A stretch of DNA of 64,000 nucleotides from Lingula anatina (taxonomy: Eukaryota; Animalia; Brachiopoda), in assembly GCA_051362555.1 (NCBI GenBank), contig CM120645.1:9424001-9488000 (forward strand). Reading direction: 5' to 3'. The position numbers and the translations under genes were made by a program. This document shows, piece by piece, positions 1 through 45,306 of this stretch. Numbering within the stretch: position 1 is the stretch's first letter; each line of letters opens with the position of its first letter. The notes under the pieces were generated by a model that ran no database searches, had not been told where the DNA came from, and was given only the letters and a program-made list of their open reading frames with translations.

Positions 1-300
1 ACTGTTGATACATACATTAAGTGGCATCTTTTAAGTTCTTTGCCTGAGCTATGTTAAATACACCATTTAAAATACAATGAAGTGAAATAAATCATGCCAT
101 TGGTCTACTGATAATCATCATGCCTGAAAAACTCACAACACAAATTCGCTTTCGATATGAATATACTGTCCCCAACCTTCCTAATTATCCTGATTTCACA
201 ATAACTTTATATAAAGGAGTAAAACAATAAAATAAAAGACCCCAAAATATGTCAATAAATGAAAACAAAACTCCATCTGTTTCCGAGTGCATCAGCTCAC

Positions 301-479
301 CCTATTATTAAAAATATCACCACAGCCGAGAGAAAATAGTTGGTCTGATAGTACAGCAAGTTGTTGATCATTCGGTTGTTCCATCGTGTTGGGTCTCTCA
401 AAGACGGCACCTGAAACCTGGCAGATTCCAGCAAAAAATCTGAGAGAGGCCGCAGCGGGGCGAGCTCCACCTCGTCCAT
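301..479 (-). CDS. ARL6IP5: PRA1 family protein 3 (ARL6IP5/JWA/PRAF3), first coding exon; the rest of the gene lies left of the window
   Basis: ATG at 479 gives MDEVELAPLRPLSDFLLESARFQVPSLRDPTRWNNRMINNLLYYQTNYFL, the PRA1-family N-terminus (LAPLR...RWNNR..NNLLYYQTNY). The exon ends at a GTGAG donor (296-300 on the minus strand). Confidence 0.93.
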
Positions 480-680
480 ATCGATTCTCAGAATTAGGTC
501 AAGGCCGCTTATGTGCATGTTGAATAAAAGCTTGGAAAGTATAGATTTCATCAATATATTCATTGAAAAAGATCTTATATTAAATATATTAATTTTAACT
601 TCAATGTGACCTTGATGTTGGGAAAATATCATTACATTTTAGGGAAATTGAAGAATAGCTTAAGCTGCAATTTATACAAC
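480..680. promoter_or_regulatory. Putative bidirectional promoter and 5' UTRs shared by ARL6IP5 and UBA3
   Basis: Only ~200 bp separate the divergent ATGs at 479 (-) and 681 (+). Confidence 0.7.
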
Positions 681-3600: not shown

Positions 3601-6514
3601 AAAGAAATCCAATCTTTACTTGATGCAGATAATCATTACAAAATTATACCTTTCAGATCAGTTTGTTAAACTACGAGGACGGCATGGTGGACCAGCAGTC
3701 GATCATCCCCATGGTAGATGGCGGCACTGAAGGTTTTAAAGGAAATGGCAGGGTGATCCTGCCTGGGATGACGGCCTGTGTGGAGTGTACTTTAGAGCTG
3801 TATCCACCCCAGGTATGTGTGTGTTTGTGTGCATGTGTGTCCTCTCTAGAGCTTTATCCACCACAAGTGTATGAGTGTGATATATATTTTTGTGCTAGAG
3901 ATATGAAGTATCATGAATGATTATGGGTTTATTAAAAGTTGCAATTTTTTATATTATATATATTTTAAACTTGCAGGTGAATTTCCCCATGTGTACTATA
4001 GCCCACACACCTCGTCTACCTGAACACTGTATAGAGTATGCCAGGGTGCTACTCTGGCCACAGGAAAAACCATTTGGAGGTATGCAGGAGAATGGTGAAG
4101 TGTAGCTTCAGAATCGTGTAAAATCCTTAATCTGTACTTAAAGAAAAAATTAACAAAACATGGTAATAAAGAAAATTGACTTAACTTGATTCTCATGTAC
4201 ATTAGCAACCTATATCTTTGTAGAAAAAAATGCTTAGTTTATTGCCTGGTTGCTAAGATATGAAGGAATGTTTTGACATCTTTGTACTTGAAAGAGATAA
4301 AATGTGCTCAGTAATTGAAATGGCAACAAAATCATCCAGTAGAATTGTCCACATTGTTACACATAATGCAGTGAATCACCATTTCTTCAACACTCACTCT
4401 GCCTCATATGAGAAGTTATACGGGTGCCTTGATGACTATATTCCAGAGGAAGTAAACATAGACGGAGATGACCCTCAGCACATTAAGTGGATATTTGAGA
4501 AGTCGTTGGAGAGGGCCAGGGAGTACCAGATAACAGGGGTAACGTACCGCCTTACACAGGGAGTAGTCAAGAGGATAATCCCTGCTGTAGCCTCCACCAA
4601 TGCTGTCATATCAGGTGTGTCATCTCTACCTGTCTGTTTGTCTGGAAACCCATCTACATAAACAATACCAACACTGCTTACACAGATATTATATATAAGG
4701 CATATTTTAATTGTTATTTATGAATAAAACCTAGGGAACTTGCCTGTGATATCAGCATTCCAGTGTCACTTCCAGTAACTTAATTAAAAGTTCTCTGAAT
4801 CTCAAGTAGATCAGTAGGAGTCTGTTTATATTGAGTGGGGGTAGCAAATTAAACCGTGTCTGTCATGACTGACAATTGCCATCCTGCATGCATTAATTTT
4901 TTTTTTACCAATCAACACTAGGCTACTAGTTTTGAAAGGCATTTAATGATTTTTATTTAGCTTTTATCCTTGAGCTGTATCACTTTTTAACACAGCCTTA
5001 AAATTATTTTATTCTTACAACTTATACAGTTTTTAACACAATGACCCTTTTACAAGACAATCCATTCCCAGTAGAGTATATTTGATATGTTTATTGGCTA
5101 AATTAATCTTTATCTATTTATGGTCTTGTTTTCCAGCTGCATGTGCCACGGAGGTGTTCAAGTTGGCGACCAGTTGCTGTCCCCCGCTGAACAATTATGT
5201 CAATTTTAATGACACGGAAGGAGTGTATACGTATACATTTGAGATTGAAAGAAAAGAGGACTGTCCCGTTTGTTCTCAAGTGCCACAACCCTTAAACTTC
5301 TCAGAGGACTCAAAACTACAGGAAATAATTGATTATCTCACAGAAAGTACAACTTAGTAAGTTTCCAAGTTATATCAAAGGTGTTATAATATGCACATCT
5401 TTGCGTTTTTTATTTATTTATTTTTTTTTTTTTATTAAGTTTTTGTGAATGTTTAGGCGAAAGAAGTTTTTTAACCTGTACATAATATATGGTACACTGT
5501 TGTTCAAGATTTTGTCAATATCTTTTTACTTTTCAGTCAAATGAAGTCTCCTGGCATAACGACAATGATAGATGGCAAAAATAGGACCCTGTACATGCAA
5601 ACTATACAATCTATACGACAGAGAACGAAAGAAAATTTGAAGAAATCTCTTCAAGGTAATTCACAAAAGATCATACACTGAATTTACAGTAGTTGACCTT
5701 CAGGAAAAAAATGCATATTTGCTACTCAGGAACTTTTATGTGATTAAAGGTTTACTTTTTTGGGAACTCCCACACCAAATTAAAATTTGTTTAAATTGGA
5801 AAAAAATGCTGTCCTACTTATGAATTATTGCTCAATCTGTCCCTGCACTTGAATGACACATTTTATACCATTTTTTTTTTAAATATAGTTATTTAGTTCT
5901 AAATGTGTACCATATTGTAATGTTTAGACTAATATGTCTTTCTGTACATTTTGGAAGGAAATATTGATATCAGATACTTTTATTTGATTTAACAGTTTTA
6001 AAAAGACCGTTAAAGGTCTGAATTAGGAGACATAATATGATTTTGGGACATTTTCAAATGTGGGTAGTTTAATATATGATAATTATCAAACACAAGCCGA
6101 AATACATTCATACTGTTGGCTTACGGCCAACCTGGATGTAGGCCTTCATCAGACTGATGTGAGCAGAGGTTGACACTCACTGACCGCTAGGTAGTATTGC
6201 GGCCAGGACCATCTTATAAATGTCAGGTAGATTGACCCCCATGGGTGGCTGGTGACAGCTGATGTTGATAGCCTCTCATATCTTGCGTGGGATGTTAGAT
6301 TACTCAGGTTCAAGTATCTTGGTTTTTAAACCAAATTTTTTAAAATTCCGGTCAATACTGTTGCTGGTTCCATAAGCTAACGGTATGAATGTATTTTAGC
6401 TTGTGTTTGATACTTATTATAAATGATAATAAAGACCAAGTTCATACTATTGATGGAAAATTTTTTTTTATTTTTTTATTTTTTACGAACAAACAATTAT
6501 ATTAAAACTTGCAG

Positions 6515-6554
<40 letters not shown>

Positions 6555-6703
6555 AGATGGCATGTTTTGTGGTATACTTATTATGTATTTTCCTTCCAGA
6601 ACTTGGTCTCACCCACGGCCAGGAGATATACGTAGCTGATCCAACAACACCCAATGCCTTAGTATTCAAACTGAACTTTACCACTGACATGGAGCACAAA
6701 TAG
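681..6703 (+). CDS. UBA3: NEDD8-activating enzyme E1 catalytic subunit UBA3, 13 coding exons
   Basis: Exons 681-694, 1164-1269, 1672-1752, 2010-2092, 2443-2523, 2862-2905, 3357-3421, 3657-3812, 3977-4079, 4447-4614, 5137-5356, 5537-5655 and 6600-6703 join in frame with GT-AG introns. Motifs: [60 protein letters not shown], catalytic [25 protein letters not shown]. Stop TAG at 6701-6703. Confidence 0.97.
2524..2861 (+). other. U12-type (minor spliceosome) GT-AG intron in UBA3
   Basis: The 5' splice site is GTATCCTTTC. The branch site TCCTTGAC at 2841-2848 lies ~13 nt before the CAG acceptor. The frame is continuous across the junction ([12 protein letters not shown]). Confidence 0.92.
6075..6421. 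mobile_element. MITE-like element with ~50 bp imperfect terminal inverted repeats in the last UBA3 intron
   Basis: Left TATGATAATTATCAAACACAAGCCGAAATACATTCATACTGTTGGCTTACGG matches the reverse complement of right CCATAAGCTAACGGTATGAATGTATTTTAGCTTGTGTTTGATACTTATTATA. Confidence 0.7.
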
Positions 6704-8645
6704 GGAAGAGGAAAAAATAAAAACAATTCCTTGTTTTTTTTTTTCATCAAGTGAGGACCAAGTCAAGTGAACATGTGATTTTGTCTTTATCATATATAAA
6801 TATATATCGTGCGGGCAGATAGTCTGTCATCTGTGTCAGTACTTTCCAGGGTCTTGCTTTCTCAAGGTTGCCAACTGAACGGTCTTCAAAAGACATATTT
6901 TTGTTGCTGCAACAGTCATCATGTTATGTGCAAATTGAAATAAGTAAACTCGGAGAATGAATAATAGTAAGGGAAGAAGTGCTATATAAAGAACTGCATC
7001 TGGAACAATTACACTTTCAAGTGAATTTCAGGACAAGAATTTTGGAATTAATCTCACTGCACTCCAAAGCCAAATAATTTTTAAATATTTACGTTAATTC
7101 GACGGGACTTTTTTTGAAAAAATATTAAATGATTTGATCCTAAAAGAGCAGACCTGACTCTACAGATGGGATGAAGTCCGAAGTTCACAACGATTGAAAT
7201 GCTTTCAAATGCATATACTTAAATGCCATACAAATACATACGTGAAGTTTTACGTTTAACTTAATCATGGAAGAATGATAACAAGAAGATGTGTCAGTTT
7301 TAGAAATAATGTATTAACTTGAACAAGTTTCATATTAAAAGAGAAAAAAGAAATCACGATGAGCATATCTTGGAACAATATTGTGTACCTGCATGTATAT
7401 ATCATCATTGTGACAAGTAATCAAAGTAAAAAGGTAGACCTACATGTCTTTTATTATTATTATTTTTTTTTTTTTTACATCGTGATTAAACACCGCCTTT
7501 CTATTTTTTTACCACTTCAAACTATCTTAAAAAATAAGTGTAAGGTAACCAGCCGAAGCCTCCAGGTACAAGCCTACAGCCGGCAGTTTCAAAGGGAGTG
7601 GGGTGTCTTTTTCTAAATTCTGAAAACGTGGACCCTGTTACCCCTTTGTTGGCCAATCTGAAATATGACCTAAAACCTAGATCAAATTCTGATTCAGACT
7701 TTTTTTCCTGCCAAAAGCGCGCTCTTTTCGAACTTCCTCACCCCCCGCCAACCTCATACCTCTACGGGGCAAACACGATGGACACGCGTACTGCTGTAAA
7801 CACTGCTGTTGAACTCACGTTAATCTCTGATAATGTGCTAATATTATACCGTGTCCTCAATATTCACTTCGCGTGCTTTACCTCAAACCTGGACCAGAAT
7901 GTTCTGATGCTGTAAGTTCACTAACTGCAACAACTCAAGGGGGTGCTTGTTATAGTGTATATATCAATTAAAACATTTTTTTCTTTATAATGTACTTGAA
8001 TCATTTATCTGTTTATTTATGGTAGGCTCTGTTCTTATTCCAAGTTTTATTATCTTCACTTTCTGCTAAATACAAGAATAAGAAAGATATTTTTAAAGGT
8101 GAGAGTCGTTCTTCAACTATAAGTAAATTGTAAATATTCAACAAAAACCCCATATGCCTGAAATTTTTGAAAAACTGCCAAGAATACGTAAATGGAAGGT
8201 GTTACCTAACAATCTATTGAGGGTCACAGTTGTTAAAGTTGTGCATGTTTAAGGGGATTTTTTGTGAAAGAAAATTAACAATAATAGCCCAATCTCTTCA
8301 ATCTTTCATGGTGCGACCTAACAGGTGGCAGATACACATAGCAGATAGCTTAATCCTCGTATCCTTAAACTGACCTCACTCTTGGGAAGTTCGGGTCTCT
8401 GCCTAAATCTCCATAACAGTTTCGAAATAGCAAGTTTGAAGAAAGTCACGAAAAACATGATAGGGACACGGTCGCCCTGACATTCCGAAAAGCTCCTACA
8501 CGGATAGCAAATTAAAATTGCCGGTTTCACCACGACAAAGTACTCAAATTCAGGGTACAGTAACGAGTGATCGACTCCTACGCTAAGGCACGCCTGCAGC
8601 AGGTTTCTGCTGAAAGCGAGCCACGCGGGCAGGGCCTCTAAGGGG

Positions 8646-8728
8646 TATAAATGGGGGCTACTCCGTGACGATCGGCACACTGTTCCTGCGGTTTACAGAT
8701 ATTTGCGCCGATCACATTCTTCTTCCAG
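8646..8728 (+). promoter_or_regulatory. TATA box and short non-coding exon 1 of peptide gene copy A
   Basis: TATAAA at 8646-8651 is followed by a conserved block ending TCTTCCAG|GTAGGT. The same block occurs at 13621-13703 (C), 20566-20648 (D) and inverted at 12961-13043 (B). Confidence 0.75.
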
Positions 8729-8780
8729 GTAGGTTCTTACGCCGAGAAAAGGACATTCGTAAATATATATATATAATAAT

Positions 8781-8828
<48 letters not shown>

Positions 8829-9287
8829 ATAATTTTTATTTATTATTATTATTTTTTTATATATGTTCGTCTATTTCAACTTGACCTATTCAAACATACG
8901 CGTCAGGGCCTACTTTATTACATTTTTTGCATTTTGGAATTGTGTCTCCATAATGAGGCATGATGTCCGGTCATTTCTTTTAAATGAAATTATGCTATGA
9001 AAGGGCGCAGGCCCAATGTACCATGATTTTATTTCTTCTAGTTTTATATCTATTTCTGCATGCACACTCGGTTTTTTCTCTACAACTCTGGTGGAAATCA
9101 AATTGCAATGCAGTGAAAACTTCAATTTACGACAATCGTCAGTTTCTTAGATTTCCCATCTGTGATTTTTTCAACCAAATCAAAGTCACTCGATAAATTT
9201 TTTACCTCCTAATCACAAATTATTGACCGATCCTATCCTTGGACTTGGGTTTGATGTTTTATATCAATTCTTTAGATAAAGCACTTA

Positions 9288-9502
9288 GGGCGTATTCCCA
9301 TAGATTTTAGATCGATCTATCCCCGCGGGGAGTCTCACTAGATTACTGTCAGATAATCCGGCTTAAATGTCCGTCCCGCCTACCACTAGCTGTAAGGGGG
9401 TAATTAACTTTCGTGCCCGCTCGGCTGACAGCTATTTAGCGTGAACCCCCAGGGAGTTAGGTCGATCTCAAGTAGATCGATCTAATCTCTGGGAATGGGG
9501 TC
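9288..9502. mobile_element. Tourist/PIF-Harbinger-like MITE with TTA target-site duplication, in intron 1 of peptide copy A
   Basis: TTA flanks at 9285-9287 and 9503-9505; imperfect TIRs (ATTCCCATAGAT...ATCTCTGGGAAT). It is absent from the paralogous site in copy B, which has a single CACTTAGAT. A second copy lies at 53611-53842. Confidence 0.85.
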
Positions 9503-9789
9503 TTAGATCGCCTTGTCATCCCGAGCATTTTAAACGGAAATATGGACAATGTTTGCTTTTTTAGAGGTGTTTTATCGTATTAATTATTTTAATTAGTTTG
9601 CACTAATTAGTTTGCACTAATAAGGAAAGATACATAGCTAAGCAGGATACGTGATTGTGGACACAAATGTATTACTTTGGGACATTTTTAAACGCAGATT
9701 CGGTCTTTAAAACATGAAATCAAATGTTCGTCGCAACCTTTCTTTTAAATGTCTAGTTCTTGTCATCTTTAGTTTCAGCCAACGTTAAG

Positions 9790-10499
9790 ATGAAGGTTCT
9801 GTGTGTTGCTGTACTTTGCCTTGTCGCGACATTCGCCTCCGCCAAGTCTCTTGACGAGAGAGTGGGTAAGAGAAATTTACAAATACTGGCTTAATGCACT
9901 TTTATTTACTCCTGGTATTCATGAATTGTCAAACTGTAATATTTTACCTCGATTTGTAATTTAATGCCAACCTGATGTGCCTACACTACTATCAACGCCT
10001 CATCAACACACCGCGCTACGATCTAACTGAACGGTTTTCTAATATTCGTTTCTATTGCAATGTGTCTTGATACTGTTCAAGACATTATCGCCCAAAGTAC
10101 ATTTTATCTCCTTTTCAACAGTTCCTCAGAAAAGCCGTTTTGTAGACAAAATGAATAGCCATTCTGTAGCAAATAAATTAAAACCAATTCCCCCAACTTC
10201 TTAACTTTCCGTTTTCAGCCCGCATGTTGATGGAAGATGAAGAATTCAAGAGGGGTCTCAAGTCAACAGTTTGCAACGCCATCGAGAACGTCATCAACAA
10301 TTTTGCCCCTGATCTTATCAAGTTCGGCTGCAACAACGTGGACGAAAATGCTATCTGTGGTCTGGTAGTGAATGCCGTCGGCGGCTATTTTGGCGCGACC
10401 AAAGCAACATGTAAGCTGATCATTCCCGACAGTCTCATGAAGAGCCTGCAGAATCAGTGTAGGCAACTCGGCAGCTTTAACAACGTGAACGTCTGCTAG
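9790..10499 (+). CDS. Secreted 6-Cys prepro-peptide, copy A (118 aa), family unrecognised
   Basis: Exon 9790-9865 (MKVLCVAVLCLVATFASAKSLDERV, donor G|GTAAG) plus exon 10219-10499 (ARMLMEDEEFKR/GLKSTVC...NVNVC*). Phase-1 intron with canonical sites; structure conserved in three paralogs. Confidence 0.88.
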
Positions 10500-11460
10500 A
10501 CGGGCAAAGCCGACCGGCAAAATATCAGCGCGCTTCTACATTTAAATTTGTGCAACATTTGCTGAACTGTTTGGGATGGAAGACATAACGAGTTGAAGTG
10601 CGAACGAGTACAGTTATATAAAAGATCACTTTAATTTTGGCGGCCATTTTGTTTGAGCTGAATAGCCCTTATTTGCTTTTTGTGAATTTTGCTCAATTTA
10701 TGCCGTGCTAATAACAACAATGGCTTCTTATTAATTTTTTTCTTGTTTTAGTCCTTATTAATTTCTACAAATTTTAAAATACTAAAATACGTGTTACAAT
10801 TTGCGTTTTAATCAATTTAATTATATCCATTCCTACTAAAACATGATTATTCCACTTATGTTGTGTTGCTAAAGCTTTCCTCTAAAACATTTATTGGATT
10901 TTTATATATTTTTTTTTTCGGGGGGGGGGGGGGGGGGAGGGGGGGAGGTGTAAAAAAGACAAGGCATTTCATACTTATAGTACTTTCAAACTTATCAAGT
11001 AAAAACTGTTTCAAGTCAAAACGAAATACGTTGGCCTAACTGGAGCAAATACTGGATATTACCCGTATTTCCCACGCGCTTCCACTAAAAGTTTAAATTG
11101 GGCACTTGGAATTATAAATTATTGTAAGATCACCGACCGCAGTCTCAAAGTACAGGCCCATACCCGGGAATTTCAAAGGAAGTGGGCGTCTTTATCTGAA
11201 TTCTGAAGAAATAGATTATGTTATCCCCTCACCTGACCTAACTTATAAAATGACATAGAACCTAGATCAGATTCTGGTGCAGATTAAATTTTTTTCTGGC
11301 AAAATGCGCTTCTTTCAGTTGCTGTCAAATTATGTAACTTACCATGTTGAAAAATGTAATAATAAGAAGAAAAAGAAGAAGAAGAAGAAGAAGAATAAAA
11401 GTCTCAAATGTTCAGTAGTCTTTACATGGGTAAAATAAACAGAATAAGACGAATAAAGTC

Positions 11461-11462
11461 AA

Positions 11463-11509
<47 letters not shown>

Positions 11510-11511
11510 AT
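11461..11511. repeat. (AATA)n microsatellite
   Basis: Direct read of the sequence; it contains multiple AATAAA hexamers downstream of copy A. Confidence 0.9.
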
Positions 11512-12248
11512 AGGCAGTTTAGATATTATAATATTAAATTGTAAAGTATATTTAACATTTTAAGATATTAAAATAGATAGTACAAAGTTAAGATAACAGC
11601 CAGTCAAATCAGTTATAAAACTTTCTGAAAATGAGTTTTTAAATCTTCTTTAAAGTTGTACTGAGACTCCATAGATAAAACCTTCATTTCGTGTCCTTTC
11701 ATCACAGACAATCTTCGACGACACTCACCTCAAAATACATTTGGTAAAACAAAATAAACGGCTTCTAGCTGTTGCCTATTTTTGGTGGTTTACGCTCCTA
11801 TTGCAAACGGACGGAGGGGCGGTCAATGTGAAGTACAGCACGTGCTCAGGACGACCTTCACATTTTCTAGAACAACGAGAAAATCAAGTGACTGAAAAAA
11901 AAAACATGCTCAGGACGATACGAATGTGTTTCCTCGGTCACTAGACATTCCTGATTAAAACGGGGTGGCAATATCTGTACCACAGTCTTTAAAATAATTA
12001 CTCCAATCATTACTAAAAAGCCATAATTCAACAAAATCCCAATCTTCTTAAAATCTTTGAAATATTACCGAGAATGTGTAAAAGGTAGGTGTTACCCAAC
12101 AATGACTTGGGATAATAGTTTATAATTGTGCAAGTTTAATGATTTTTTTGTCAAAGAAACTTATTGCTCCTGCTCTTCAATCATTTTTATCCTGCGACCT
12201 TGAGGCCCATTCATGCTGGACGGCGTCATTTCTGCGTCCCTTCTGCGA

Positions 12249-13043
12249 TCAAAAATGTGGTCTGGACTTGTCGGAGGCGAATGTTGCGGCGAGGCAAAGT
12301 ACAACTACGCACAGAACCTTCATTTTAACGTTGACTGAAACTGAACATGACAAGTATATTTAAAATACATTTCGAACATTTAAAATAAAAGTTGAGACGA
12401 ACAATTGAACTGCTGTTTTAAAGATCGACTCTCTGCGTTTGAAAATATCCCAAAGTAATATGTTTGTGTCCACAATCACGTATCCTGCTCAGCTATGCAT
12501 CTTTCCTAATTCGGATAAATTAATTAAAACGATAAAACACCTCTCATAAAGGAACCCATTGTCCATATTTTTGTTTAAAATGCACGGGATGACAAGGCAA
12601 TCTAAGTGAGTGACCAGTACTTTATTTAAAAACTTGATATAAAACATCGAACTCAAGTCCAAGGATAAGATCGATCATTAATTTGTGATTACGAGGTAAT
12701 AAATTTATCGAGGAAAATGCAGCAATAGATATAAACCTAGATTTTAAAAAAATCATGTTACAGATAATTGGCCTGGGCCTGTGTCCTTTCATTGCATAAT
12801 TTCATTAAAAGGAAATTACCGGGCATGTCTGCACTTTAGAGGCACGATGTGAAACTTATATAAACAGTAGGTCCTGACACGAAATTTTTAATAAGTCAAG
12901 TTAAAATAGAAGAATATGTAAAAAAAATACGAATGTCTATTCCTCGGCGTTAGAACCTACCTGGAAGAAGAATGCGATCAGCGTCAATATCTGTTAACCG
13001 CAGGAACAGTGTGCCGATCTTCACGGAGAAGTCCCAATTTATA
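12249..13043 (-). pseudogene. Inverted, 3'-truncated copy B of the peptide gene (promoter, exon 1, intron 1 and signal peptide only)
   Basis: Minus-strand TATAAA at 13038-13043, donor at 12961/12960, ATG at 12323 giving MKVLCVVVLCLAATFASDKS. Homology is lost at ~12265 and the frame stops (RPHF*) at 12249. No exon 3 is present. Confidence 0.85.
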
Positions 13044-14412
13044 CCCCCCTGGAGACCCTGGCCGTGGCTCGGTTCCAGAAGCAACCCGCTGCAGGCGCGC
13101 CTTAGCGTAGGAGTCCGTCACACCTGTCTGCAGCACCCTATCTTTGATTTCGTTGTTGTGTGGTCATACAAGCAATTTTAATTTGCTATCAGAACGTTCT
13201 TTGAACGTTCTTTGTGCGATCTTAGCGATCATCGAGCGTTCTTTAAGCGTCCAAAGGTGACCAGGCCAGTTCCATGGTCCCACAAAGGACGCAGATGTGT
13301 AAAGGGGGTTTTACAAATGGTCGATACACGTAGAGACAGCTTAATTCCCGCTCTTGGGAAGTTCGGGTCTGCGGCTCAATCTTCAGAGACAGTTTCGAGA
13401 TATGAGGCTTAAAAAAGTCACGAAAACATGGTAGGGAAATGATCACCCTGACATTCAAAAAAGTTTATCTCCTGGTGGCAAATTAAAATTGCCGGTTTCA
13501 CCACCTAACAATGAACTCAAATGCAGGGTACTGTAGACACGCGTGATCGACTCCTACGACAAGGCGCGCCTGTAGTGAGTTGCTTCTGGAAGCGAGCCAC
13601 GGTCAGGGTCTCCAGGGGGATATAAAATGGGACTTCTCCGTGAAGATAGGCACACTGTTCCTGCGGTTAACAGATATTAACGCTGATCACATTCTTCTTC
13701 CAGGTAGGTTCTTACCCCGAGAAATAGACATTCGTATTTGTTTTACACATTCTTCTATTTCATTGACTTTATGCGTCAAGGCCTACTTTATTATATTTAT
13801 CACATTCAGGAACCGTGCCTCTGAACTGAGGCATGTCCGTTTATTTCTTTTTAATGAAATTATGCTATGAAAGGGAGAAAGAAACTTACGAAAAAAGTTA
13901 CGACAAACGTCAGTAAGTCAAAGGTTTCCTATCTGGGATTTTCTCGCCAAATCAAATTTTTCTTGGATAGGTTTTTTTCCCTCCTAATCACAAATTTTTG
14001 ATCGACCCTTGGGTTCGATGTTTTATACCTAAATTTCTAATAAAGTAATCTAGTTTTAAATGACTGGTCACTCAATTAGACCACCTTCTCATCCGGCACA
14101 TCTCAAGGGGTAATATGGACAATGGGTACTTGTATTAGAGGGATTTTTAGATCGCCTTGTCTTCCCGTGCATTTCAAAAGGACATATAGACAGTGGGTAC
14201 TTTTATTAGCGGGATTTCCTCGTTTTAATTAATTTTTCTGAATTATGAAAGATAATCGCTCAACAGGATACCTGACTGTGGACACAAAAATATTATTTCG
14301 GGACAATTTCAAACGCAGAGTCGATCTTTAAAACAACAATTCAAATATCCGTCGCAGCTTTTCTTTTAAATGTCTCATTCTTGTTTCATCTTCAGTTTCA
14401 GTCAACGTTAAG

Positions 14413-15292
14413 ATGAAGGTTCTGTGCGTTGTTGTTGTACTTTGCCTTGCCGCGACATTCGCGTCCGCCAATTCTCTTGACGAGAGAGTGGGTAAGAGAG
14501 ATTCACAAATACTGGCGTTTAACTCTTAAATTAGCTCTTTTTAGTCACGGTATTTATTAGTGTCAAACTGTAATTTTAAATAGATTTTTAATTGAATACC
14601 AGGGGCGGATCCAGAGATATTTTCTGACAGTCTTCCAAATTATCTTTGTTGATCCATCCTCCATTTTTGACCGTCTTCCGACAGAAAACATTAGATACCT
14701 GACAATATAAACTTGAAAATCTGACCGTCTTCTGGAAGACCCAGAAGACGGTCTAAATCCGCCCCTGAATACCACCCTAACGTGCCTACACTACACTCAA
14801 GGTCTTATCAACACAACTTGCTAGGTCTTACTGAGCGGATTACTAATATTTGTTGCAAAGTGTCTTGTTACTGTTGAAGACACGATCATTCAAATTCGTT
14901 CTATTCCCTTCACAAAAATTGTAGACAAAATATAGACAAAAGGAAAAGCCATTCTATTGGCAAAAAAATTAAAACCCAATTCCCCGCAACTTTGTAACTT
15001 CCCCTTTTCAGCCCGTATGCTGATGGAAGACGAAGAATTCAAGAGGAGTTTCTGGACCAAGATCTGCGACGCCATCGAGAACGTCATCAACTCTTTAATC
15101 CCTGATATCGTCAAGTTAGGCTGCGACAGCGTGAGTGAGGACTTTATCTGTGATCTGGTGGTGAAAGCCGTTGGCGGCTATTTTGGAGCGACCAAAGCAA
15201 CTTGTAAAGCTATCATTCCCGACAAGTCCATTGAAGACCTGAAAAATCAGTGCAAGATATACGGCACCTTTAACGGCGTGAATATCTGCTAG
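14413..15292 (+). CDS. Secreted 6-Cys prepro-peptide, copy C (119 aa)
   Basis: Exon 14413-14491 (MKVLCVVVVLCLAATFASANSLDERV) plus exon 15012-15292 (ARMLMEDEEFKR/SFWTKIC...GVNIC*); canonical splice sites; TATA at 13621. Confidence 0.88.
14600..14767. mobile_element. 168-bp non-autonomous DNA transposon (CAGGGGCGGA...TCCGCCCCTG) with 5-bp TSD AATAC, in intron 2 of copy C
   Basis: TIRs are visible; AATAC lies on both flanks (14595-14599, 14768-14772). It is absent from copies A and D. A near-identical copy lies at 45521-45688. Confidence 0.9.
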
Positions 15293-16258
15293 ACGGGCAA
15301 ATCCGATCAGCAAAATGTTAGCACGCTTCTACATTAAAATTTTTGCAACATTTCTTTAACTGTGTTTGAGATAGAAAACATTACGAGATGAAGAGCGAAC
15401 GAGTATACTAGCTTAACAGACCATGTTAATTTGGGTGGGCATTTTGTTCGGGCCGAGTAGCCCTTACTTGATATTTGTGAATTTTGCTCAATTTCTACCG
15501 AGCTAATAACAACAGCAGCTTATTATTAATTTTCTTGCTTTAGTCTTCATTAATTTCTGCCAATATTAATATTTTAAAAACGAGTTGCATTTTGCGTTTT
15601 TATCAGTTTAAGCCAGTCCTACCAATATTTTATCATTCCACTTAAATTGTGTTGCTTAAGCTTACTTCTAAAACAATTAATTGGAAATTTGTATAAGAAG
15701 TATTTTTCTGAGGGGGGGGGGGAGTGTCAAAAAGACAAAACATTTCATACATATAATATTTTCAAACTTATCAAGTAAAAGACTGTTTCAAGTCAAAATG
15801 AAATACTTTGGCGTACGTGGAACAATTACCGGATATTACCCCTGTCTTTCCCACGTGCTTCCACTAAGAGTTTAAATTGGGCACTTGCAATTATGAATAG
15901 TTGTAAGTTTACCGACCGCAGCTTCAAAGTACAGGCCTATTGCCGGCAGCAATTTTAAAGGAAGTGGGGTGTCTATTTTCTGAATTCTGGAGAAATAGAT
16001 TCTGTTACCCCCTCAGCTGACCTAACTTATAAAATGACATACGCCCGTATTCTATAAGGTCACTCACACTCACACTCATAGAGTGCCACTTGACACTCAA
16101 TGAGTGTCACTCAAGACTCAATGAGTGAAAGGTTTACCTCAGACTTGAACCTTCCACAGACCTCACTCACACTCATTCAAGTTATTAATTTTGAGTGATG
16201 GTTGAGTGTGTGGTACACCTCCCTCAACATTCACTCAGTTCAATGTTTGTTTACCAAA

Positions 16259-17285
16259 ATGGCGGATGTGTGGCTAAATATAATTGAAAACAATAATAGA
16301 TTACAACATGTTGGCGGTCAAGTGCGAAGAGAGTACAATTTTGACTATGAAAAGTACACTGACGAGGAGTTCAGAAGACGTTACAGACTGACCAAAGACG
16401 CCTTCCAGGAATTGTTGCGTTTGGTAACACCAATGATAGCCCCTCATAATGAAAGAGGCAATCCAATCCCTGCAGATATACAGCTGCTACTTACACTGCG
16501 TTTCTATGCCACTGGCACCTTCCAGATGGCTTGTGGAGATCTCTGTGACATTTCCCAGTCATCTGCAAGTCGTATCATCAAAAGAGTATCAGAAGGTATT
16601 GCTTCGCTTAAACCACAATTCATACGGTTTCCTGAAGGACAAGAACTTCAAAATATGAAGCTAGGATTTTGGAGGATAGCCGGTTTTCCAGGCGTTGTGG
16701 GTCTATCGACTGCACTCACATCAAAATACCATTTCCAGGTGGTGTGGATGCAGAACTGTACAGAAACCGGAAGGGCTACTTCTCTATCAACGTTCAGGCT
16801 GTATGTGGTTCCAATTTGGAGATGTTGCATATCGTGGCCCGGTGGCCTGGCAGTGTACATGATGCACGAATATTTGACAACAGTCATCTGTGTGCACAAC
16901 TTGAAAGAGGGGATATAGAAGGTATTCTGCTAGGCGATGGGGGTTACGCGTGTCGTCCATATTTGATGACTCCAATAATAAACCCACTTACAAGGCCAGA
17001 GCGTTGTTACAATGCTTCTCAGATACGTACCCGAAACACAGTTGAACGAATGTTTGGTACATTTGTTTCCCTGCCTCAGCATGTCCCTTCGCACAAAACT
17101 ACAGACCACTTTGACCATCATTATCGCCACGGCAACTCTGTATAACTTTGTAAGAGCCAGGAATGACCCCATGGATGAGCCACCTCCGCAGAATGCACCG
17201 AACCAAGTTGTAGCAGTTTCCTGTTCCAGCTAGAGGATTGGGCAATGCAGCCAGACGTACCATAATACAGCAACATTTCTCATAA
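16259..17285 (+). pseudogene. Harbinger (HARBI1-like) DDE transposase, frameshifted
   Basis: Motifs EEFRRRYRLTK, QLLLTLRFYATG, IDCTHI, NRKGYFSINVQAVC, WPGSVHDARIF, LLGDGGY, RNTVERMFG and C-terminal GNAARRTIIQQHFS*. Frame breaks near 16700, 17060 and 17220. Confidence 0.92.
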
Positions 17286-17364
17286 AAGGACAACAACAAA
17301 GTAAGTATTTGCGTGAACTATTTATTGAGTCAATACCAAATCATACAATAATGGCAGCAGTTCT

Positions 17365-18264
17365 TTAAGCATCTACTGATTCATCACGCATTTGGATTTC
17401 AGTTTTCTTCTTCTTTTCGCCCTGTTTATTCCAGTAACTTAACTCAGCATCAAGCACTTCCATTTTTCTTTTAAGTTCTTCTTCCATGTACATGTACTCC
17501 ATATTCTTCTTCAGGTACTCGAGTTCAGCACGGTGTTGTTCTTGCTGCATTGCCAAGCATCGGGATTGAGCAGGAGTGACCTGGGTTTTCCTGGGTTGCT
17601 TTCCAGTCTCATCTAGATCTGTAATAGTGACAGTTGATGGAGTGGGTTCATCATCAACATGGCTATCATGTTGAATGTCATGCTGATCGTCGCGTACAGC
17701 ATCTTGTTTATCTGTAATGAAGTATTGCAATAAAGTAACCATTTTACAGTTATACTTTGTCATAAACATTCAAATAACTTAATAGTGTGCGGAAAATATG
17801 ACAATCTATTTATACAGGCGATTACAATATCATCAATAGCAGTAATAATAAACAGCATTCTAGGTAACTACTACGAATAAATACCTTGCTCCACATTGTC
17901 ATTATCATAGGGGTTGGACAAACTGTCGATCTGTGATGGTATAATGGCTGCTACAGCAGAGGCAGTTTCATCCGCAACCCTTCTTCGACCGCCACCAGTC
18001 AGCTTTGCTTCCCTCTTTTCCTTTGCAATAGACTTCTTAGCCCTAGAATTTATATTTTCCCAGCATTTTTTTAGTTGCTTGCTGTCCCGTTTCTTCACCC
18101 CACTTTGCGAGTTGAACTCCTCTGACAAGCTTTCCCATGTATCGTTTTTCTGCTTGATCATTTTGAAGTCATTTTTTTTACATTCCAGAACGGATTTGTT
18201 TTTGTCCACTATTAAATTCAGTCAGTAGAGACTTCTCTAGCTCAGAGAAGTATTGTCTGGACAT
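17365..18264 (-). pseudogene. Harbinger Myb/SANT-like DNA-binding protein, 2 exons (18264-17885, 17711-17365), with one apparent frameshift near 18213
   Basis: MSRQYFSELEKSLL...KNKSVLECKK...KNDTWESLSEEFNS...RDSKQLKKCWENIN...TGGG is a typical Myb/SANT-like (MSANTD-type) domain. GT-AG intron; coiled-coil-like C-terminus. Confidence 0.85.
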
Positions 18265-21163
18265 GGTGACAGCAGTCAGACTGACTAAAGTGATATGCAC
18301 ACTCAATACAAGGAACTATTACTCAAGTGTCACTTAACTGAGTCACAGTTGAGTGAGCTTAGTGAAAGTGAACACATGTAACATTCAATGAGTGTGAGTA
18401 GTCACTCATTTTATTGAGATCACACTCACACTCACACTTGAGTTACTCTTCAGCCACACTTGAGTGAAACTCAGTTAAGTGTGAGTAGAGTGTGAGTGTG
18501 AGTGACCTTATAGAATACGGGCGATAGAGTCTAGATCAAATTTTGGTGCATATTAGACCTTTTCTGGCAAAAAACGCTCCTTTCAGTTGCTGTCAAGTTT
18601 TGTGAATTACCATGTTGGAACAAATAATAATAATAATAATAATAATAATTATAATAATAATAATAATAATAATAACAAATATTATTATTATTATATTCCA
18701 AAATCCGCAGAAAATGTTTAGTAGACTTTACATGGGTAAAATGAACAGAATTAGATGAATAAAGATAATAAGTAATAAATAGGCAGTTAACATGTTAAGA
18801 TATCAAAATGTGTGGTTTAATATAAATAAATATATGGACAGTTAAAATTTAAGATAGATAGCACAATGTTAAGATAACAGCCAGTGAAATCAGTTATAAA
18901 ACTTTTTTGAAAATGAAAGTTTTAAATTCTTCTTTAAAGTTGTCCTGAAACTCTATAGATAAAACGTGACTTTGGCGTTCTATCATCACAGACAATCTTC
19001 AACGACACTCACCTCAAAATACATTTGGTAAAACAAAATAAACGGCTTCCAGCTGATGGGTGTTTTACACTCCTGTTGGAGTTGGAGGGGGGGGCGGTGA
19101 ATGTGCAGGACGCCACGTGCTCAAGACGACCATCACATTGGCTCGGTTAAACAGAAGGTCTAGTGACTAAAAAAAAAATTGCTCAGGACAACACGAATGT
19201 CTTTTCTCGGTGACTAGACGTTACCGATTAAAACGGGTAACAGTTAATGCACTACACTCTTTAACTCTTTTAAAATAAATTCTCCAATCATTTCTAAATA
19301 GTTATTATTCAACAAAATCCCCATCTTTTTAAAATTTTTGAAATATTACCGAGAATATGTAAAAGGTAGGTGTTACTTAACAATCTATTGGGGTAGTTTA
19401 AAACTGTGCAAGTTAAATGGCTTTTTTGTCGTTGTTTGGTCGTCGTTCAATTTATTCTGACCCTTTATATTTTTCCATCAGTTCTAACTCGATCACCCTG
19501 GTCACCCAATTAAGAACATCTCCAGAAAACGAAACGTATAATTAGGAATAGCCTTTTTTTCAACTACAATAATGCTTTCAACTACAATAATACTGGTCTG
19601 CATGGACTGATAATAAGCCATATTATCATTGTTGTCCTTATAAGACGGATGGACAGGGGCCGAAGACGAGAAAGGCAGGCTGACAAGATATAGAATTTTT
19701 GAATCTGCAAAAAATTGCGACAAGAACTACATCTTGAAAAAAAAACCCAAAATGTTCGTTCTATAATTGCCCTCAAATATGGATCGGTTCAAGAATTTTA
19801 GGGGAAAAATACCAACTGGAGGCTGGTATGAGACCAGTAGTAGCTGTTACCCTAAGATTTCCTGTCTCTGGTGAAAAACACCTAGTGAGGCCCCGTAAGA
19901 GAGTAAAATATAATACTTTACTTGCCGAAAACAGGCCGATCGTTGAACATTCATTCTGCAACCAAACCATGCTTGTGCCTCCTTTCTGCTACCACGGCGA
20001 TGCGTGTGCGCCCTCTCTGCGTCTCTTGAGCGACCTGCATGTACTTGCAGCGTCCATCCTCCATTGCGTTCCCTGTGCGATTCTTGAGGACATGCGCATA
20101 ACTTCGCGACGATCATGGGGTCCCCTGCGATGCTTGAACGTTTTTTGTGCGATCTTAGCGATCACCGTGCGTTCTTTGAGCGTCCAACGGCGGCCTGGCC
20201 AGTTCCATGGTCCCTCAAAGAACGCAGAAAGGATCCCGCCCAGTGGAAAGGGGGGTTTACAAATGGTTGATACACGCATCAGACAGCTTAATCTCCCGTA
20301 TCCTTAAACTGACCTCACTTTTGGGACGTTCGGGTCTGCGGCTCAATCTTCAGAGATAGTTTCGAGATATGAGGCTTAAAAAGTCACGAAAAACATGAAG
20401 GGGAAACGATCACCCCGACATTCAGAAAAGTTCCTCACCTGATAGCAAATCAAATTTGCCAGTTTCGCCACCTAACAATGAACTCAAAGACAGGGTGCTG
20501 TAGACACACGCGTGATCGACTCCTACGTTAAGGCACGCCTGCTGGAGCCGAGCTACGGCCAGGGATATAAATTGGGGCTTCTCCGTGAAGATTGACACAC
20601 TGTTCCTGCGGTTAATAGATATTTGCGCTGTTCACACCCGTCTTCCAGGTAGGTAATTACGCCGATGAATAGATACAATATAGATACAATGCAGTGAAAA
20701 CGTACGAAAAAATGTGACGACGATCGTCATATAGTCAATAGATTTTTCTTCCAAATCAAATTTTCCTCGATAAATTTATCCCTCCTAACCACAAATTATT
20801 GATTAACCACATCGACTTGGCTTCTATGTTTTAAACCTAAATTTCTAATGAATTAATCTAGTTTTGAATGCCTGTCACTCAATTAGATCGCCTACTCATC
20901 AGGCACATTTCAAAAAGTAATATGGGCAATGGGTACTTTTATTAGACGGACTTTATTGCTTTAATTAATATTTCCGAAAAAGAAAATACATAGCCAAGCA
21001 GGATACATGATTGTAGACACAAAAATATAACTTTGGGATATTATCAAAATCAGAGCGTCATTATTTTAACATCAATTCAAATGTCCGTCGCAACTTTTCT
21101 TTTAAATGTTCAAAATGTTCTTTAAATATTATTGTCTCATCTTCAGTTTCAGTCAACGTTAAG

Positions 21164-21878
21164 ATGAAGGTTCTGTGCGTTGTTGTACTTTGCCTTGCCG
21201 CGACATTTGCGTCCGCCAAGACACTTGACGAGAGAGTGGGTAAGAGGGATTTACAAATACTGGCGTTTAAATCTTAGACTAGCTCTTTTTAGTCATGGTA
21301 TACATGAATTGTCAAACTGTAATTTTTAAATCGAGTTGTAATTAAATGTCACCCTATAATGTGCCTACACTACTCAAGGGATCATCAACACAGCTTGTTA
21401 TACATGAACGATCTGACTGAACGCATTGCTAGTATTCGTTTCAATTGCAACGTGCCTTGATGCTGTTGAATACACGTTTATTCAAATTCATTCGATCTCC
21501 TTTACAAAAGTTCCTTAGAAACCAATTTTGTAGACAAAATGAATCTTTCCATTACAAAAAAAAAATCGTTACGTTAAAACCTAGTTCCTTCAACTTCGTA
21601 ACTTCCCCTTTTCAGCCCGCATGTTGATGGAAGATGAAGAATTCAAGAGGAGTCTCAGGACCAAGGTCTGCGACGCCATCGAGAGCGTCATCAGCAGAGT
21701 TCTCAGCTGCGACAACGTGTCTGAAGACCGTATCTGTGGTCTGGTGGTGAACGTCGTTGGCAGCTATTTTGGAGCGACCAAAGCAGCTTGTAAACTTGCC
21801 ATTCCCAACAGCCTCATTAACACCCTGCAGGCTCAGTGCAGTAAAGTCGGCAGCTTTGAAAACGTGAACGTCTGCTAG
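21164..21878 (+). CDS. Secreted 6-Cys prepro-peptide, copy D (112 aa)
   Basis: Exon 21164-21239 (MKVLCVVVLCLAATFASAKTLDERV) plus exon 21616-21878 (ARMLMEDEEFKR/SLRTKVC...NVNVC*). It has an in-frame 6-aa deletion between Cys1 and Cys2 relative to A and C. Confidence 0.88.
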
Positions 21879-22383
21879 ACGGGTAAAGCCGACCGGCAAA
21901 ATATCAACACGCTTCTACATTAAAATTTGTGCAACATTTGCTGAACTGTGTTTGAAATGAAAGACATTACGAGTTGAAAGACGAACGAATTTTGCTAAAT
22001 TTCTGCCGAGCTAATAACAATAGCTTCTTATTAACTTTCTTTTTGTTCTCATTAATTTTTACAAATTTTAAAATACTAAAAAACGTGTTACATTTTGCTT
22101 TTTTTATAAATTAATTTTAGCCAGCCCTACCAAAACATGAATATTCCACTTACATTGTGTGGCTAAAGGTTACCTCCAAAACATTTTATTCGATTTTTAT
22201 AAAATATTTTTCTAGAGGGGAGTAGATGTCAAAAAGGCAAAACATTACATACATATAAAACATGTAGAATATTGCACTTCTATTTTTTTACAACAAACAA
22301 ACAATGTACGGAATAACCATCGGTCCTTTTATTAAAACAAATAACAGATCAACTGACGCCTTTAAAGATCAACAGAGAAGTCT

Positions 22384-23167
22384 TTAGAAAAATCTTGGCC
22401 CGAAGCCGCCACCACCGTACGAAGGTCTTGGGTTTCTTACTCCCGGTCCAGGGCGTGGTCTTGGAAGCAACCCCGGGCCCAGGAGAGGGTCAAATCTGGG
22501 CTGTGGGAGGCTGAAGACTGGCCCACTTCCTGGAACGAAAATAAGGCTTCGTTCACATGCAATGTCTATTTTCTAAATTCTATTTTCTATTCGCGCTATC
22601 TTATGATCACGGTCTGTGCACTGAATATCCCGCCGCGTAATTACTGGCAGCGCGAGCCAGTTACTTATAGTAACTTATAGTAACTGGCTCGCGCTGCCAG
22701 TAATTACGCCGCGGGATATTCAGTGCACAGACCGTGATCATAAGACATGCCGCAAATAGAAAATAGAATTTAGAAAATAGACATTGCATGTGAACGAAGC
22801 CTAACCTTCTTAATAATTTATATAAGGCCAATGTTACTATGAAAAGAAAATTGCTGGGAGGTTGATTTGTTATGTTTGTCGGAACAAGGAAATTGAAAAT
22901 GGCCATTATATTATTCACGGATATACCCTACCATCTACCTTGTATTGAGTTTGTGGACTTTGAGGGATGTACAATTGCGTATGCATAGCAAAAATGGTGC
23001 AAGCAAAAATACTCAAAAGCGCGCACACACACACACATGCTTAAACCATTTTTTCTACACTCTCTCCTAAAGCCACACCCGTGCGAAATCCCGCTCACTA
23101 TCACACACTAATCGCCATGCTTCATATTCTTCCTTCTAAAACTCGTGCACACAAAAACACACATGCA

Positions 23168-23202
<35 letters not shown>

Positions 23203-26200
23203 CCAACCTAATTGATAACAACCTGAATTCTACCAAGGAGTTATAAGAGTTATAACTCCTTGATTCTACCTACCACCAAACGGATCAAGATCATAGTCTC
23301 CTCCCCTGAACCCTGGGGGGTGGACCCCGGGGGCAAAAGGCAGGGGTGGTACGCCAAAACGATGAGGCATTCCAGGAAGGACCAACCTGACCTGCTCCCT
23401 GGCGGCTTTTCTTTCAAGATATCTCTGCTTGTACAACTGAAAGAATGTTAAAGCAGCGTTTCCCCAATTCTTTTGCCTTAAATAACAACTTAATTACCTA
23501 TATGAAATTAATCAAATATAGCCATGTTCCAGATATTGGGATTTCTTTTAATTCTTAGGCTAGCAATATTTATAACACTCGATTTCTTCATCTAAACTTA
23601 CCTGATACCAATTATGTGACAAGCTATTGTCCCTGTAACCTGAAAGCAAGGAAGATTATTTTATGTTGATTATGTAAACAGCAATAACAGATAAATGCTC
23701 AAGACTTCTTACAGAACAAAATATTGTAAAAATGAGGGTAAAGGCTCGTTTCACGACCCCTATTAAAATTGACAGTTAAGGTGGACCAATTTGCAGCCAG
23801 CACACAAAATTAAAATAAATAAAGAAAGAAATATATAAAGAAATAAATAAGAGGTCGAGAAAATGTCCTGGGCAAGCAACAAAACCCACTGAAACTGGAA
23901 TGTTTGAGGAAATACCAAATAATATTTATAAACAAAGTTTTCTGCCCAATGGATTCAGCAGAGGTTATTCTGTACACAGCAACAATAATAAGTAAAATCT
24001 AAATGCAACTATAGACACAAGTTTTTGATTTTTACAGAAAAATGTCCTTATAAATAAATTTAACAGTGCTATCATTTCACGTACTTCCAAAAGTTTTGAG
24101 ATACAACCGCCTCCAAAGAGATGGTTCTCTTGTCATCGTCTTCAGTTCCTTACACACCCGCGCCATGACACACAGCGATGGGGCATCCAAGTAACTCATT
24201 ATAAGAACCTAATATACAAACAAAACAAACCTTTTTTTATGTTTCAATAAATCACCTGCTCTCCAATCCCATCCTACTGAAAAGATAATAGCCAAGTTCC
24301 CTAGCTAAAGAAAATCAACTTGGCCATTAAAAAATTCATTTATTTTTTAGAAAATGTGACTAGCATGGGTCTTCAAGCCCGTGGAACTTCAAAGTCACAC
24401 ATTGAAAATGCCAATATGTGAAAAATTAAATTTTCACAAAATAACTGTTTAACTGGCAGTAAGAATTACCAAACAGACTGTATTTCCTACTGAAGCTGTA
24501 TTTTAGTCCCATGTTTCTTTCCTGTAAGTTTGAGAACAGTAAATGACATGGTTTTTCTTAAATGGTCATCATGGGAGCAGTGCCCAAAATAGTTTTTTTT
24601 TTTCAAATTTTGATGCAATATTACATAATGTTTAACAGCTTAATGACCATCAACTTAAATAAAAAAATATTAGTATTATGGATATTCAGAAAATGTGACT
24701 AGCAAAGGTCTTCAGGCCCATGGAACTTCAAAGTCACAACTTGAAAATGCCAAAATGTAAACGAGACAGCACTGTTCTGAAATGTTTTTTTTTCTCCATT
24801 TTTAACAATTTTTAACATAAAACAAAATTAACAGTTTTCTGCCGTTTTTATATGATCAACTAAGAAAATTGATGAGATGGGAAAAATATCAACAGAGCAG
24901 TGTTAAATGTCCAATCTCTTCCATTCTGAGATTCTGAACATAGTGAATGATTGAATCTGACAAACTGCAATGATATGAGTTTATTTCCATTTTTGAAACT
25001 TTATTACACAATACACGATAACAAGTTTACCATCATTTTTACATAATCAACTAATAATGTTGTAAAATTGCAGGAAATGCCAAACACACACTTTTACGTA
25101 TCTTATTAGTTCAATAATGAAACTGTTTACATGCCTAATAATTGAATCTGAGGAAATGTGAAAAAACTGCATTTCTTTAAAATAATGCCCCCAATTATGC
25201 TGATTTATGAACTCAACCTGCGTTTTAGCAGGAATGACCACTCCTGTGAGTTTAATGACAATTGGCCTATCTGTTTTTCTTATATTGTGTTTACAGTGTT
25301 GTATATATGCTGAAAAGTGAAAAAAAAAGCATAACTACTAAAATAGTAGCCTGATCATGCTGATTTTCGAACTTGACCTGCGTTATAGTAAGATCGATTA
25401 CTCCAGGACCTGTGAGTTTCATGACAAAAAGCTTATTGGTTTTCCTTGAAATGTGTTTACAGTGTTGCATATATGCTGAAAAGTGAAAAAACAGCATAAC
25501 TTCTACATTAATGGCCCAATCATGCTGATTTTCGAACATGACCTGCATTTTATGAATATTCATCAGCTCTGTAAATATACAGCCAAAAAGTAAAACTGCC
25601 TTCCACTTATCATGTTTACAATGAAAGTGCATGGCGCCGGCGACAGCGACAGTGACGGCAATGACGGCGACGACAGACGCAGGTGATGGCAATATGTACA
25701 GACACATCTGTACATATTAACTGTACTGTTTGAGAACAGTAAGTGACATAGTTTTTCTTAAATGGCCATCATGGGAGCAGTGTCCAAGATAGTTTTTTTT
25801 CAAATTTTGATGCAATATTACATAATGTTAAACAGCATAATGACCATCAATTTTTAATAATAAAATATTAGTATCATGGACAAATAGTAAACGTGACTAA
25901 CAAAGGTTTTTAGGCCCATGGAACTTCAAAGTCACACCTTAAAAATGCCAAAATGTAAACAAGACTGCACTGTTCTGAAATGGGTTTATTTCCATTTTTA
26001 ACACTTATTTAACATAAAACAAAATTAATAGGTTACTGCCATTTTTATATGATCAACTAAGAAAATTGATGAGATGTGAAAAATATCAATAGAACAGTGT
26101 TAAATGTCCAATTTCTTCCATTCTGAGATTCTGAACATAGTGAATGATTGAATCTGACAAACTGCAATGATATGAGTTTATTTCCATTTTTGACACTTTA

Positions 26201-37986: not shown

Positions 37987-38745
37987 ATGTCTTTTGCCTT
38001 CAACTTCGCCAAGGCAGCGGTGGGCTCTGTTAACGGGTATCTGGACCATTATAACCCGCTAAACAAACTTTTAAAGAGCGAGCCAGTGAAAGTGCTGCAG
38101 AAGGACGGGATAGTGGCGGCGGTGTGTGCTTCAGCCCTCAGCCTGGCTTTTCGGTTCGACTTCACGGGTCTTCTCGACCCTGGGGTCGCCACCAGAGACG
38201 CTGTGCCACCAGATGGCTCCACTAACAGTGACGCTACGGAGTCTGGAGAAGAAGGGGACACGGCGGAAACGGATTCTGCTTTCTCGTCTGCGTCCTCGGA
38301 CTGGACGGGGAAGTCGCTACTGAAAAGCATCTCAGCACAAACTTTAGAGTATGTTAAGACTTTTGTATCAAAACTCATAGAGACGCCACTGTTCGTGCTT
38401 TTTGTTGCTATGTTAGGATTCATGGGGTTTGTCTTCGTCACTTCCTTTACAATTATTATAGGTGTCATAGCACTCTTCGCATTTATCATGACTGTGGTCT
38501 TCTTCAGCATGGCGTTTCTGTCAACAATGGGCTTTTTCTGCCTCTTTGTGGCTATTACAGAATTCAGGAAGAAAGGGGGTCAAGCGAGTGAAACGAGAGA
38601 ACTCTTGTCTTTCACGGAATCGCTCCTCCGACAGACAGGAGCTGCCGACAAAATGAGCCATAACGCACCGTTTTCAACGCCGTCAACGCCATTTTCAACG
38701 CCATCCTCCTCGCCTTTTAAAAGAAAACTAGACTTTGAAGCGTAA
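37987..38745 (+). CDS. Uncharacterised 252-aa protein with a long hydrophobic segment (single coding exon)
   Basis: Long GC-richer ORF in AT-rich surroundings, Kozak-like ACCATGT, and a splice acceptor TTATTCCAG at 37921 just upstream (candidate upstream donor AAAG|GTGAGT at ~36402). The ~55-residue stretch PLFVLFVAMLG...FFCLFVAIT is uncharged. Confidence 0.75.
   Translation: MSFAFNFAKAAVGSVNGYLDHYNPLNKLLKSEPVKVLQKDGIVAAVCASALSLAFRFDFTGLLDPGVATRDAVPPDGSTNSDATESGEEGDTAETDSAFSSASSDWTGKSLLKSISAQTLEYVKTFVSKLIETPLFVLFVAMLGFMGFVFVTSFTIIIGVIALFAFIMTVVFFSMAFLSTMGFFCLFVAITEFRKKGGQASETRELLSFTESLLRQTGAADKMSHNAPFSTPSTPFSTPSSSPFKRKLDFEA

Positions 38746-45275: not shown

Positions 45276-45306
<31 letters not shown>

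Follow-up and report, generated by a model that had tools for sequence, protein, structure and literature searches.

A tandem cluster of annotated yet undescribed six-cysteine prepro-peptide genes in the brachiopod Lingula anatina

What do three small, closely spaced genes on contig CM120645.1 of Lingula anatina encode, and what might their products do? The genes lie in a stretch of 64,000 nucleotides (assembly GCA_051362555.1, positions 9,424,001 to 9,488,000 of the forward strand; hereafter the window), for which an earlier interpretation made from the letters alone, here called the sequence-only reading, had proposed an unrecognised family of secreted prepro-peptides with six cysteines. We find that the earlier interpretation is supported in part, that this family is real and that it is a Lingula-restricted family of secreted six-cysteine prepro-peptides that is already annotated yet undescribed.

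Results

Gene structure of the cluster

The three genes, designated A, C and D in their order along the window, are intact tandem paralogs that all lie on the + strand. The common layout that the sequence-only reading had described is present in each of them, namely a TATA box (at 8646 in A, 13621 in C and 20566 in D), a short non-coding exon 1 that ends in the donor CCAG/GTAGGT (after 8728, 13703 and 20648, respectively), a signal-peptide exon and a last exon that carries the cysteine-rich domain. The coding exons are separated by GT-AG phase-1 introns and splice in frame to open precursors of 118, 119 and 112 amino acids (aa) for A, C and D, respectively. The elements are as follows:

8646..8728, + strand: gene A, TATA box (8646-8652) and non-coding exon 1 with putative start site; kept in C, D and fragment B (described below)
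9790..9865, + strand: gene A, exon 2 coding part, predicted signal peptide and start of the pro-region, phase-1 GT donor
10219..10499, + strand: gene A, exon 3, acidic pro-region to KR (10219-10253), 81-aa six-cysteine domain (10254-10496) and stop
13621..13703, + strand: gene C, TATA box and non-coding exon 1
14413..14491, + strand: gene C, exon 2 coding part, predicted signal peptide
15012..15292, + strand: gene C, exon 3, pro-region to KR, 81-aa six-cysteine domain (15047-15289) and stop
20566..20648, + strand: gene D, TATA box and non-coding exon 1; by-eye comparison indicates that a longer database model of D joins the same donor to exon 2
21164..21239, + strand: gene D, exon 2 coding part, predicted signal peptide
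21616..21878, + strand: gene D, exon 3, pro-region to KR, 75-aa six-cysteine domain (21651-21875) and stop

Comparison of paralog with paralog by tblastn gave E-values of 1e-32 to 1e-40, indicating that their likeness is not due to chance, and no further copy of exon 3 was detected by tblastn in the window. The cluster originated by tandem duplication of a unit of ~4 kb that includes the flanks (73-81% identity).

Features of the precursors and mature domains

All three precursors have a hydrophobic N-terminus, in which 11-residue Kyte-Doolittle means reach 3.3-3.6, followed by an acidic pro-region that runs to a KR pair and then by the mature domain. This is the prepro layout that had been recognised from the letters, with the signal peptide predicted by its hydropathy profile only. 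The mature domains contain 81 (A), 81 (C) and 75 (D) residues (8-9 kDa) and terminate in a cysteine. Cysteine positions are 7, 26, 35, 53, 69 and 81, which gives a spacing of 18-8-17-15-11 in A and C, while the first gap is 12 in D where the domain has a 6-residue deletion in helix 1. Recomputation of these lengths and spacings agreed with the sequence-only reading, as did the net charge (K+R-D-E) of +1, -2 and +1 for A, C and D, respectively. Roughly 47-50% of the residues are hydrophobic, and a motif around the turn between helices 2 and 3 (G-x-[YW]-F and A-T) is conserved in all four family members, including the fourth paralog introduced below. The hydrophobic moment exceeds that of shuffled sequences in three of the four members, for membrane binding a hint at most. 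The hydrophobic periodicity that had been noted earlier lies above that of shuffled sequences with p 0.001 for A and p<0.001 for C, whereas D (p 0.36) shows no such excess.

Identity and taxonomic range

The spliced products of genes A and D are letter-identical to the Lingula anatina RefSeq proteins XP_013419791.1 (LOC106180364) and XP_013393893.1 (LOC106161480), respectively, both annotated as 'uncharacterized', and this match constitutes an independent annotation of the two gene models. Among the proteins recovered by the collection searches there was none for gene C, and both gene C and the clustering are absent from the protein records examined. A phmmer search of 1.84 billion representatives additionally revealed a fourth paralog, XP_013418617.1 (LOC106179504; 128 aa, annotated uncharacterized), which is not encoded in the window. 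It has the same layout and the same end of the pro-region, a cysteine spacing of 18-9-18-19-12, and 31-37% identity in the mature domain. Overall the homolog searches yielded three Lingula proteins only, with no relative outside Lingula found by single-sequence search, by phmmer of the same representatives, or by a four-sequence profile (scored only on 2375 candidates of near lengths and, as weak evidence, on 7995 of longer lengths). With these tools the family comprises four known members, all from Lingula, a range that is a lower bound because other brachiopods are thinly sampled.

No Pfam family was matched at E<=10 by the three exon-3 products or the three full precursors, and sequence searches of the PDB gave no family, talin (E 0.23) and a regulator (E 2) being the sole matches. 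The ESM Atlas provided no usable match for C and, for A, three unnamed clusters at 0.80-0.82 with structure rows below threshold. The earlier label 'unrecognised' therefore holds in that no Pfam, NCBIfam, PDB or ESM Atlas family covers these proteins, while A and D were already in RefSeq as uncharacterized. Three candidates were rejected: an NCBIfam bacterial lipoprotein model (E 0.004) that was matched by only one of the four members, a 527-aa protein (E 7e-7) that is repetitive, lacks the signal and KR layout and was judged a chance match, and another database protein (E 7.4), likewise judged chance. Literature searches on the accession and locus numbers, and on Lingula with saposin, returned no paper, and none of the titles listed by further literature searches concerned this family, although a mention in a survey of Lingula immune genes is possible; the accessible part of PMC6425005 does not mention a six-cysteine Lingula family.

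Two observations concern the database records. For D and the fourth paralog, the database also contains longer models that run upstream through the TATA region before the signal peptide and look like over-extended predictions. In addition, the records identical to A and to D are on separate contigs (111 kb and 369 kb), though the genes are 11 kb apart here. Together with the lack of a record for C, this means either that the assembly is broken at the cluster or that additional identical copies exist.

Divergence among the paralogs

Divergence among A, C and D amounts to 5-9% of sites in the signal exon, 0-9% in the pro-region, 18-21% in intron 2 and 21-26% in the mature domain. Nei-Gojobori ratios of non-synonymous to synonymous substitution (dN/dS) are 0.65 for A-C, 0.62 for A-D and 3.0 for C-D, the last pair having 48 non-synonymous versus 5 synonymous differences (p 0.02 by Fisher test, without correction for the three tests made). 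Thus, the prepro part is constrained and the cysteine frame is invariant, with the remainder evolving at approximately the rate of neutral DNA. Positive selection is suggested for the C-D pair only, with gene conversion as an alternative explanation.

Predicted fold and comparison with known families

The sequence-only reading had also suggested a helical bundle of saposin-like size with a cysteine spacing unlike that of canonical saposin-B. The predicted models contain four to five helices in saposin order and no strands of at least three residues. Both models have an irregular tail where the saposin fold has its last helix, and model scores against saposin-like proteins are weak and not above those of unrelated bundles. 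Foldseek, proposed earlier as a check of the fold, returned nothing at E<=0.001 from the PDB or viral sets. As for the spacing, the saposin-like pattern C-x2-C-x23-28-C-x8-13-C-x23-26-C-x5-7-C, as given in the consulted part of PMC3184995, occurs in none of the four mature domains, which agrees with the earlier view. The circularly permuted version of the pattern likewise occurs in none of the four, leaving a swaposin reading without support, and CxxC is found in none. Relative to saposin D, granulysin/NK-lysin, caenopore-5 and hookworm Na-SLP-1, the Lingula family thus differs in having no N-terminal CxxC, no C-terminal C-x5-7-C and no match to the SapB_1 or SapB_2 profiles in the Pfam search above. 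Filing the family as saposin-like is unwarranted because it does not have the defining cysteine pattern, and it may work like a saposin-like protein.

Big defensins are described in the portion of PMC7203481 that we consulted as prepropeptides with a signal, a pro-region, a dibasic site and a six-cysteine mature peptide. The Lingula precursors have in common with these and other prepro antimicrobial peptides a predicted signal, a pro-region, a dibasic site, six cysteines and tandem paralogs, and a pro-domain ending in KR or RR, a feature of big defensins in that source, is present in all four members. In contrast to big defensins, the Lingula cysteines are spread over the whole domain instead of forming a C-terminal beta-defensin cluster, the models have no strands, the charge is not cationic and no Pfam family matches. 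Specifically, a C-terminal beta-defensin-like six-cysteine region behind a cysteine-free hydrophobic N-terminus was not found, the cysteines extending from 7 to 81 and the models being all-helical. This is consistent with the earlier opinions that these are not classic cationic antimicrobial peptides, given the charges above, and that their spacing fits neither defensins nor attractin.

Aplysia attractin and enticin, Euplotes Er, CHH/ITP and insect odorant-binding proteins are small, secreted, helical proteins with three disulfides; the CHH pro-peptide ends in KR and the six cysteines of CHH/ITP include an internal C-x2-C. The Lingula domains are likewise small, predicted to be helical and secreted, and contain six cysteines. 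They differ from these pheromones and hormones in a spacing without CxxC or Cx3C and in having no Pfam or PDB sequence match, so that for CHH/ITP in particular both the CxxC (none of four members) and the Pfam match are missing. Attractin, odorant-binding proteins, CHH and defensins were not among the 50 structural matches listed for either model, which does not exclude them.

Expression

Transcription of C and D was explored in eight raw-read runs carrying the same species label (nine are listed), with tissues unspecified and 6-30% of each run read. Four runs mapped to 12200-16000 at 90% gave about one read on exon 3 of C, with almost all others on a repeat in intron 2. This repeat collected 2,000-4,000 reads per run with unrelated flanks, indicating that the element is widespread in transcripts. 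In the four other runs, mapped at 80% to 20300-22300, a single partial read fell in the 3' flank and none on the coding exons of D. The RNA-seq check that the sequence-only reading had called for thus produced no spliced read and no splice joint over the C and D regions in these partly read runs, which had no housekeeping control. The mapping neither demonstrates nor excludes expression, since the tissues are unspecified, the runs were read in part and without such a control, and the mapping covered the regions of C and D only.

Fragment B, mobile elements and flanking genes

Other features of the cluster are:

12249..13190, - strand: fragment B, in which the promoter, exon 1 (donor 12961), intron 1 and the signal exon (ATG 12323) are copied in inverted orientation
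14600..14767, no strand assigned: short inverted-repeat element inserted into intron 2 of C between two AATAC motifs; 91% identical to another copy at 45521-45689
16042..18523, no strand assigned: PIF/Harbinger-type transposon inside the C repeat unit, between C and D, bounded by perfect terminal inverted repeats of 36 bp and by a target duplication of ATA

On the - strand, fragment B resembles the genes from 13190 down to ~12265; its reading frame stops after 24 codons, and it lacks both an exon-2 donor and an exon 3. Its sequence indicates a truncated pseudogene that is head to head with gene C (their TATA boxes are ~580 bp apart), and a transcript from it could be a signal-only or non-coding RNA. 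The Harbinger-type element encodes a DDE_Tnp_4 transposase (+, E 7e-24) that is frameshifted near 16700 and a convergent Myb/SANT gene (-, E 2e-15), and its paralogous empty site near 11255 has a single ATA. A 200-bp inverted-repeat element is present in intron 1 of gene A (9294-9496), with a second copy at 53617-53836 (80% identity), and a near-perfect palindrome (93%, 260 bp) is located at 22544-22802 just downstream of D.

The flanking genes are of housekeeping types and are uninformative regarding function of the six-cysteine family. To the left, 297-7000 contains a PRA1-family gene (-, E 1e-15) and exons of a ThiF/E1-like enzyme (+, E 6e-4) that resembles UBA3. To the right are a nucleotide-sugar transporter (39900-42071, -) beside two tandem RINGv (MARCH-like) genes with transmembrane exons (43100-48300, E 4e-13 and 1e-10), and Bicaudal-D exons (56204-58577, E 9e-69 and 4e-90). 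Degenerate repeated units with similar translations and no Pfam match at 25047-26942 (-) are probably a tandem repeat, and a 282-aa open frame at 37897-38745 includes an extended hydrophobic segment, and no Pfam match to it passes the cut-off.

Discussion

We tentatively favour, as a possibility still short of probable, that KR-cut secreted precursors release a three-disulfide helical bundle that binds and disturbs lipid membranes as a host-defence effector. This proposal builds on the gene structure, the paralogy, the six invariant cysteines and the divergence pattern, and takes in the predicted fold; processing, bridges, membrane activity and role would then run as follows. The signal would be removed after about residue 18-19, and a convertase would cut at KR, probably a PC1/PC2-like enzyme in secretory granules rather than furin because there is no Arg at P4, the residue that furin prefers there. 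The acidic pro-region may aid folding or storage. The limits of the helices suggest nested bridges C1-C6, C2-C5 and C3-C4, of which C3-C4 would close the helix 2/3 hairpin one turn further out per helix than in saposins (17-18 versus 8-13 residues apart), C1-C6 would anchor the C-terminal tail on helix 1, and C2-C5 would span the hinge. The bundle would touch the membrane with amphipathic helix 1 and would not depend on net positive charge for this. Several points count against such an effector, namely a charge that is neutral to acidic, weak fold scores of the predicted models, and hookworm Na-SLP-1, which according to the part of PMC3184995 consulted binds membranes without killing. A bolder version, which we consider doubtful, is that these are brachiopod-specific, convertase-processed, membrane-active effectors on a re-wired saposin-type bundle, in which the hairpin bridge is shifted by one turn and the terminal bridge has become a hinge-crossing bridge, that would be invisible to saposin profiles and cysteine-pattern screens and would kill or deter by non-cationic means.

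The same near-neutral to acidic charge, together with a KR site of the prohormone type and a surface-sized motif at the helix 2/3 turn that all four members conserve, would also suit a receptor ligand such as a water-borne pheromone, a gamete-recognition factor or a peptide hormone, with paralogs diverging in specificity. Small three-disulfide helical pheromones occur in molluscs and ciliates, and the near-absent RNA signal in the eight runs is compatible with tissue- or season-restricted expression. We regard this as rather unlikely, given that no Pfam hormone or pheromone family is matched, that the CHH-type CxxC is lacking, and that hormones are usually conserved across a phylum, yet no relative was found outside Lingula. 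Less likely again is a non-lytic binder of lipids or small molecules with a saposin-like fold, serving as a carrier, surfactant or lipid-hydrolase cofactor in mucus, gut or coelomic fluid. The weak saposin-like matches and the hydrophobic content apply equally here, and saposin C is itself acidic and binds at low pH (PMC8878781, in the part consulted), but the fold match is weak, and tandem duplicates whose mature domains diverge at least as fast as their introns are more readily explained by an arms race than by a housekeeping carrier role.

Two further explanations seem very improbable. A decaying cluster of duplicates that are barely or no longer expressed, with a mature domain drifting near neutrally, would account for about one coding-exon read across eight runs, for a truncated copy and two transposon insertions inside the cluster, and for mature-domain divergence close to that of the intron; however, the three intact genes have no stop or frameshift despite ~20% divergence, all six cysteines, splice sites, TATA boxes and prepro-regions are retained, the sole indel is in frame, and the RNA mapping had no positive control. 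A structural secretion (shell matrix, periostracum, chaetal or pedicle adhesive protein) would recall the many lineage-specific small secreted shell proteins of Lingula, some tandemly duplicated (PMC4595640, in the part seen), but none of 14 no-homology shell-matrix proteins in Supplementary Table 26 of that paper fits the four precursors, by length and Ala/Gly/acidic content alone, low-complexity repeats are absent, and pro-region processing is unusual for such proteins.

No general principle is changed by this cluster, as orphan clusters of cysteine-rich secreted peptides are common among invertebrates. With one small domain that is easily expressed, the family lends itself to direct tests of fold, disulfides and activity. 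A pheromone or hormone, if that is what the released domain is, would offer a rare handle on chemical signalling in brachiopods. If the membrane-active host-defence reading that we favour is true, the family would provide a candidate defence effector in a phylum with hardly any described secreted peptides, and it would show that a different cysteine pattern can conceal saposin-type folds, which pattern-based screens would then undercount.

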